Shown one piece after another: positions 14,145-14,860 of a stretch of 64,000 nt of DNA; positions within the stretch are counted from its first letter, which is position 1; every line of letters starts with the position of its first letter. The position numbers and the translations under genes were made by a program. Source of the DNA: Chara braunii. Its lineage: Eukaryota > Plantae > Charophyceae. The stretch spans positions 1,694,280 through 1,758,279 of the forward strand of contig BFEA01000001.1 of the NCBI GenBank assembly GCA_003427395.1, written 5' to 3'. The notes beneath the pieces were generated by a model, which had not been told where the DNA came from, did not search any database, and worked only from the letters and a program-made list of their open reading frames with translations.

Positions 14145-14860
14145 GAGTCTCCATAAGATTGGAGGGTCCAATGCTATGTTTATTTCTGATTGCTTGAAGG
14201 ACCAGACAGATTCTCATAAGTTTGGGTGGTTTGGTTGCTTTGACTTGTGAGGGCTGACTGTGATTGACTTTTCAGGGACCAAGAATGTTTCATAAGTTTG
14301 GGTGGCTTGGTCGCCTTGTTTAACTTGGGCTTCTTTCAGTTTCTTTAGTTCTGAACGAGGAGGTCTGGGCATGTTTCATAAGTTTGTGTGGCTCAGCCTC
14401 TTCCTGTTTTGGTTTTAAGAGAATAAATCGGGCTGAGGACCAGACAGGTTCCCATGAGTTTAGGTGGTCTTTGCCCAATGCCACGCACATACTGGAACCA
14501 AAAGGATATAACTTGGCTATACTTTACTATTATTCTATCTATGAACAGGCTAGTTAGATAGGGTTCCATAAGTTTGGGTGGTCTGACTATAGCTTATCAC
14601 CAACTGAAGAGAGTATCAGCTAAGAATAAACTTGTGGTACGAAGGGACAAGCTAAATCTTGATCTAAGATTACCAGTTCAGTCATATGTTGCCTCAAAAG
14701 ACTAAGTGGAGATAAATATATAAAGTTGGGATACTTAAACAAGTTCATGGTGACTAGGGTGGCCTAATCATATGCCCAAAGAATAGAAAAGTTGTTGTGC
14801 CCTGTGTTTGTGTATATTTTATGGCTAAGCTAGGCATGTTCCCATAAGTTGGGTATAAAG
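14145..14860 (+). repeat. Second stem-loop array with loop consensus ~ATGTTTCATAAGTTTGGGTG
   Basis: Hairpins at 14201-14235, 14277-14312, 14365-14396, ~14441-14470 and 14551-14589, with degenerate loops at ~14151 and ~14836. Confidence 0.85.

Follow-up and report, generated by a model that had tools for sequence, protein, structure and literature searches.

Copy-specific hairpin heads on a position-specific scaffold in two related repeats of Chara braunii

The locus and the repeat family that carries the arrays

The window, the whole 64,000-nt stretch of a Chara braunii contig (BFEA01000001.1) that was analysed, is eukaryotic and repeat-rich, with L1 relics, a Penelope-like element and a Ty3/gypsy element. 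The Penelope-like element has a reverse transcriptase ORF at 38719-41620 on the minus strand (RVT_1, E 0.002) and an upstream ORF in which a GIY-YIG-like motif was seen by eye. The Ty3/gypsy element lies at 55202-63183 on the minus strand; its LTR blocks are 92-96% alike, its gag, protease and integrase frames are broken, and all 17 of the matches to its gag-like ORF were Chara braunii proteins, at 55-77% identity. A Type III hammerhead ribozyme match (46569-46623, plus strand, 47.5 bits, E 2.5e-7) adjoins a 215-260-bp tandem array that contains a microsatellite.

Positions 1-1948 and 14982-13651 of the window are inverted homologues, and aligned blocks around the hairpin array are 64-86% identical between the left and the right copy. 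The earlier note had called the right copy a sister LTR. Because the copies are inverted and 64-86% alike around the array, they do not form the LTR pair of a single insertion; they are inverted relatives from two subfamilies. The left element occupies 1-4825 on the minus strand, with a TGTCG start at 4825, and is collinear with the right element to the window edge in six blocks of 60-75% identity. The right element, a probable long LTR, occupies 10199-18718 on the plus strand and measures 5,496 bp without its nested insertion; it starts with TGTCG and a terminal hairpin and ends in TTGACA, this 3' end (18718) being placed from a PBS-like motif only. The block that is most conserved between the copies lies at 13651-14100 (plus strand, 75% over 610 bp) and holds a transcribed exon that reaches to a probable splice donor, AG/GTAACC, at 13884/13885. 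Diverged subrepeats of ~120 bp follow the array at 15107-15655 (plus strand), the fifth of which is split by an insertion and resumes at 18680-18718.

The family has two more truncated starts, with TGTCG at 6403 and 7701, within 4826-7701 on the minus strand, and these carry 28S-like and U6-like pieces. The starts at 4825, 6403 and 7701 follow one another at intervals of 1.3-1.6 kb, all have NCGN flanks, and may be insertions nested at a favoured site. NCGN was found beside 6 of the 9 TGT termini listed (5 of 8 independent sites), at a CG frequency of 0.049. Contigs from three DNA runs (two samples of one study) were compared with 13600-19200 of the right copy, which is the scope of all read and contig comparisons given here. 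They comprised 50,895-55,522 records per run, indicating that the family is very abundant, although this depth is not a copy number. The left modules at 4100-4300, 5800-6010 and 7070-7270 (minus strand) show a TATA-like run and, behind it, a folded stretch that looks tRNA-like to the eye; ARAGORN called no tRNA, these stretches included. Several GGTAAG motifs were also seen by eye on the plus strand at 2050-2870, which are donor-like in antisense and resemble the U1 5' end in sense.

The insertion that interrupts the right element is a 3,020-bp element at 15656-18675 with Ginger1-like ends, 134-bp terminal inverted repeats (94%) and a 4-bp CCGA duplication. Contigs that join 15650 to 18675-18679 represent its empty site in other copies. 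Its 134-bp inverted repeats and TGTCG/TGTCA ends agree with the 40-270-bp inverted repeats and TGTNR ends of Ginger1, while its target duplication is one letter off the published CCGG/CCGT-type preference. Its two internal ORFs had no Pfam match, the gypsy integrase query gave no match in it, and no coding region was found. A Ginger1-like non-autonomous family with TGT ends and 4-bp target duplications is present also at 20013-20440 and 3288-3554 and is very abundant in the contigs. Ginger1 was described from animals (PMC2836005, accessible in part).

Decayed 28S rRNA-like pieces lie in both orientations at 10724-11314 of the right element, with 65-72% identity to eukaryotic LSU rRNA loci and no match in any of 20 shuffles. 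Two decayed 28S regions (65-75%), one sense and one antisense, are common to the left and the right element (3548-3907, 5151-5343, 5565-5634 and 10724-11314) and were inherited with the element. Cassandra is a high-copy repeat that carries 5S rRNA; the Chara repeat is likewise a high-copy repeat with rRNA pieces, which are of 28S here rather than 5S. The third left module also holds a U6 snRNA-like piece (6621-6720, minus strand) that scored 61 bits with Rfam, above the gathering score (E 6e-13). A reading of the array as rDNA spacer was dropped, as the LSU pieces are isolated and decayed and neither SSU nor 5.8S matches were found.

The array-bearing repeat is probably an LTR. The TGT start, the CA end and the PBS-like motif agree with the earlier note, which had placed the array in an LTR element, but gag-pol, a direct partner LTR and a target site duplication were not found in the window, where the element is interrupted by nested insertions. 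The TG at 10199 is supported by four homologous starts, and the three left starts begin with TGTCG likewise. The PBS-like motif, TGGCGACTCTG (18721-18731, plus strand), lies 2 nt behind the putative LTR end and presumably resembles the tRNA-Arg primer site of Ogre/Tat elements. The papers and supplements within our reach, which exclude most of the supplementary tables of PMC6317226, contained nothing to confirm it as a tRNA-Arg primer site. The span of 5,496 bp is near the LTR sizes given for non-chromoviruses in the accessible part of PMC6317226. Depth shows no step at 18718 and does not fall behind it, and no loose end is placed there among those listed, so the LTR end is provisional. Some 1.3 kb of sequence lies behind the PBS-like motif before the next insertion. 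A gag-pol search of 1-21000 with 17 Chara gag-like proteins and the gypsy ORFs of the window gave no match, and our searches found no Gag, extra ORF or other binder protein of the array-bearing element. A broken ORF with a weak CCHC knuckle (7686-7889, plus strand; zf-CCHC_4, E 0.042) adjoins the 7701 terminus, upstream of the motif; none of five candidates was a homologue of it, which is weak evidence. A Helitron 3' end was also considered for the terminal hairpin and dropped, since CTAG follows the hairpin in one of four copies only. Metagenome scans returned no match to a conserved 27-mer and eight loci with a terminal 19-mer, none of which had further similarity to the window.

Units, heads and stems of the two arrays

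The left array (158-1440, minus strand) has 10 units, with cores starting at 158, 251, 348, 444, 561, 635, 1235, 1307, 1360 and 1421, and is split by a ~490-bp insertion (~700-1190). The right array (14146-14856, plus strand) has nine unit positions, with cores starting at 14146, 14209, 14285, 14371, 14447, 14561, 14658, 14742 and 14836. These are the only two arrays readable unit by unit. The insertion in the left array consists of a 95-125-bp unit repeated in both orientations, ends in an A run and forms long hairpins. The hairpin at 14551-14589, with the sequence TAGTTAGAT-core-GTCTGACTA, is homologous to 436-472 in inverted orientation and lies exactly where the earlier note had put it; the loop sequences read there were also correct, the left one being exact in 5 of 10 units and the right one in 1 of 9 (14285-14305).

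The loops had been claimed to be more alike within a copy than at matched positions, and the 20-nt cores bear this out. Core identity was 0.92 within the left copy and 0.61 within the right, against 0.52 between copies and 0.53 for eight position-matched pairs (label permutation p=1e-4), the correspondence of the last three or four units between copies being ambiguous. Thus, the cores group by copy, and grouping of loops by position was not seen apart from one unit. The 12-nt arms, in contrast, follow position (0.59 matched vs 0.38 unmatched, exact p=5e-4) and show no grouping by copy (p=0.13). Likewise, the five spacers compared were 0.63 identical at matched positions, 0.48 elsewhere and 0.49 within a copy, with lengths of 73/73, 77/64, 76/76, 97/93 and 54/55. 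Stem types are held in common by the last three or four units only. Because arms and spacers are position-specific and spacer lengths are kept, whole units were not re-duplicated and the heads alone changed. These results support a concerted, copy-specific change of the cores with position-specific stems and spacers.

The right array had also been called internally homogenised, a description that suits the left array (0.92) but the right one only in part, as two of its nine units are not of the right type. These are 14742-14762 and 14658-14677, the latter being nearer to the left type (0.60 vs 0.42). In addition, half of the unit at 14836-14856 is missing from the window copy.

On the plus strand of the right copy and the minus strand of the left, each unit folds into a 7-9-bp lower stem whose sequence is free, an inner loop, an upper stem of 3-5 bp and a hexaloop that begins with TAAG. 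The left lower stems covary: 85% of 80 cells are paired, with two-sided changes in seven of eight pairs, and none of 500 shuffles reached the observed percentage while slid controls gave 12-49%, the structure having been derived from the same sequences that were tested. The apical TAAG is found in 17 of the 19 units and in both subfamilies. In the left head it is closed by TTC/GAA, while the right head has a four-pair stem with an extra A-T pair and a G.U in place of an A-U; in right unit 14146, a left-type hexaloop sits on a stem of five perfect pairs. What had been described as a different loop is therefore a common tip on an altered upper stem, the difference lying in the upper stem and the inner loop. 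Of the 54 pairs that close TAAG on the proposed sense strand, 46 are Watson-Crick, 6 G.U, 1 A.C and 1 other. The excess of G.U over A.C is not significant (6 vs 1 at the tips, p=0.06; 11 vs 4 in the lower stems), and some of the G.U pairs are products of decay, judging from other copies. Folding of the whole array is weak (z -0.6 to -1.9), with the sense strand barely above the antisense. An Rfam search gave no family over either array. The complement of either core has only weak, fuzzy matches elsewhere in the window, which leaves a guide or master-copy model without support here.

Transcription and other genomic copies

The RNA data come from one oligo-dT run (X5), about 6% of which was read, and comprise 246 reads, 228 of them less than 95% alike and 68% continuing into other sequence. 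First-mate depth over 13600-13973 was 17.0 and 28.9 on the minus strand vs 1.1 and 0.8 on the other; under the usual strand convention, we infer that the RNA runs along the plus strand of the right copy. RNA depth over the array is below 2. Two sets of eight reads depart at 13876 and 13886, and both fit an exon end at 13884 before GTAACC. This probable donor lies ~260 nt upstream of the first hairpin; the left copy has GC instead of GT at the same position. If the donor at 13884 is real, the array is absent from spliced RNA and kept only in unspliced RNA. DNA depth likewise falls after 13973, and a truncated genomic copy could mimic the departing reads. The RNA reads may also derive from a few diverged loci.

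Among the 40 differences listed, of 674 between the right copy and the DNA runs, 11 are majority differences within the array, seven of them in units. Six of these seven put a Watson-Crick pair in place of a mismatch or wobble or agree with the core of intact right-type units, each of the six in at least 98% of the depth. Loose ends before 14845 in all three DNA runs indicate that the unit half deleted in the window is whole and of the right type elsewhere. Part of the untidiness of the right copy is therefore decay, and the right-type core agrees with the other genomic copies at the listed places of difference. The two odd right cores have no difference among the 40 of 674 listed.

Readings of the array and its likeness to known systems

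How plant LTR retrotransposons tell their own RNA from that of a relative is, to our knowledge, poorly known. The usual account of family-specific motif arrays is that whole units were duplicated anew, a process that cannot produce the present pattern, in which stems and spacers stay fixed while the heads change together. The literature within our reach, which excludes most subscription papers and with them possible descriptions of the Chara genome, holds no description of such a hairpin array, and the accessible parts of PMC5890265 and bioRxiv 10.64898/2026.08.24.746577 have no bearing on it. A close likeness is to the repeated motifs of Sirevirus LTRs, which are also hairpin-forming, family-specific, present in at least eight copies and carried by a plant LTR, as is probable here (PMC2829016 and PMC4728375, both available in part). 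Sirevirus motifs are more than 85% alike within an element and vary in sequence between families, according to the same partial sources; the Chara arrays, with 10 and 9 units, are also homogeneous within (0.92/0.61) and different between (0.52). However, the Sirevirus motifs of these papers are short palindromes with a CGG-CCG core, more conserved in the arms than in the centre, that lie upstream of the TATA box in Ty1/copia elements, whereas the Chara units lack the CGG-CCG palindrome, have free, covarying arms and a conserved centre, and lie downstream of a transcribed exon.

The earlier note had drawn a parallel to VANDAL transposons, in which VANC binds 8-9-bp duplex DNA motifs that are multiplied by tandem duplication in Mutator-like elements and for which coevolution with the element protein has been proposed (PMC5735166, in its accessible part). 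The parallel is loose: a short, subfamily-specific motif is repeated in non-coding transposon DNA in both, but the Chara units are not re-duplicated, their stems covary and TAAG is common to the subfamilies. No TRF array covers either hairpin array, no VANC-like ORF of a Mutator-like host was present among the ORFs scanned, and the ends are of TGT type. Thus, the subfamily-specificity resembles that of Sirevirus and VANDAL arrays, while the conserved palindromic arms, the tandem multiplication and the Mutator host that define those arrays are absent here. Non-chromovirus Ty3/gypsy elements of the OTA and Phygy groups have LTRs of up to ~5 kb, tandem-repeat arrays and non-Met tRNA primers including Arg, and Phygy elements, though short, share the NCGN target preference of the Chara flanks; by contrast, a polyprotein, a partner LTR and a target duplication were not found in the window for the Chara repeat (PMC6317226, accessible in part). 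The accessible part of that paper mentions neither captured 28S or U6 pieces nor a hairpin array.

Covarying stems, units that were not re-duplicated and a TAAG common to both subfamilies point to a folded single strand. Together with the subfamily-specific upper stem and the position behind a donor, the covarying stems and shared tip fit a multi-site RNA tag. We tentatively propose that the array is such a tag, present in unspliced RNA only, to which a protein of the element, for example Gag, would bind and so mark the RNA of its subfamily for packaging. The earlier note had similarly suggested an address code for a cognate binder encoded by the element; our searches found no protein of this element that could be the binder. 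Retroviral Psi is a leader stem-loop RNA signal specific for the cognate structural protein, and the packaging signal of retroviruses lies behind the major splice donor. Caulimoviruses have a virus-specific stem-loop packaging signal in the leader RNA that is read by the cognate coat protein (PMC5902531, available in part). The viral signals consist of one or a few hairpins rather than ten, and the Chara array lies upstream of the PBS-like motif. A packaging-type RNA signal fits the array better than a VANC-type DNA motif. In the proposed scheme, the array would sit in a leader or intron between the donor and the PBS-like motif. A new head would have spread from unit to unit by short-patch copying, either through template switching of reverse transcriptase or gene conversion, and selection for a binder that matches it would have fixed it. 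TAAG, found in both subfamilies, would be the common contact and the upper stem the subfamily determinant. A bolder version, which we regard as improbable, is that the fixed scaffold of ten hairpins, with heads rewritten in concert at each subfamily split, is a self-recognition code that co-evolves with a Gag or extra-ORF protein and bars cross-packaging.

Concerted evolution might also have proceeded with no cognate binder, the hairpins having a generic role (leader structure, splicing control or recognition by a TAAG-reading host protein) and their heads being homogenised by short-patch conversion as the subfamilies drifted. The apical TAAG is common to both subfamilies, one right unit stayed left-like, and the head changes keep pairing and could thus be near-neutral; moreover, region-specific recombination homogenises non-coding sequence in pararetroviruses (PMC5491270, seen in part). 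Conversion of this kind would nevertheless have to halt where the stem begins in most units, leaving arms and spacers position-specific, and the 92% identity of the left cores, set between arms that are old and diverged, suggests that selection acts on the head. We consider this explanation somewhat unlikely. The reading favoured by the earlier note, in which the cores are duplex DNA sites that an anti-silencing or transcription protein of the element would bind, as in VANC motifs and Sirevirus LTR repeats, seems unlikely. Duplex binding needs no covarying stems of free sequence, no tandem array was detected, the spacers are not homogenised, the array is downstream rather than upstream of the transcribed exon, and a candidate gene was not found, even though a copy-specific motif that recurs some ten times, 60-115 bp apart, in non-coding DNA, and the family-specific arrays documented in VANDAL and Sirevirus (PMC5735166, PMC2829016 and PMC4728375, each in part), would suit it. 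It is more unlikely still that the host repeat is a large non-autonomous DNA transposon with integrase-type (Ginger-like) ends and the array its internal signal: it shares TGT ends and NCGN flanks with the nested element, has an inverted, 70%-alike end at 20436-20572, was found with no gag-pol, partner LTR or depth step and recalls the captured fragments of GingerRoot elements (PMC6839031, in part), but it has a CA end with a PBS-like motif 2 nt behind, the flanks of 10199 and 20572 form no duplication, the terminal hairpins differ, and NCGN is preferred also by Phygy LTR elements (PMC6317226, in part).

As the family is abundant, a single assembly pass could show whether head type tracks a protein clade. 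The same giant putative LTR also carries the captured 28S and U6 fragments. If head type tracks no protein clade, the arrays would still be a clear case of patch-limited homogenisation; if it does, they would provide a natural series of RNA-protein co-evolution in a sister group of land plants.
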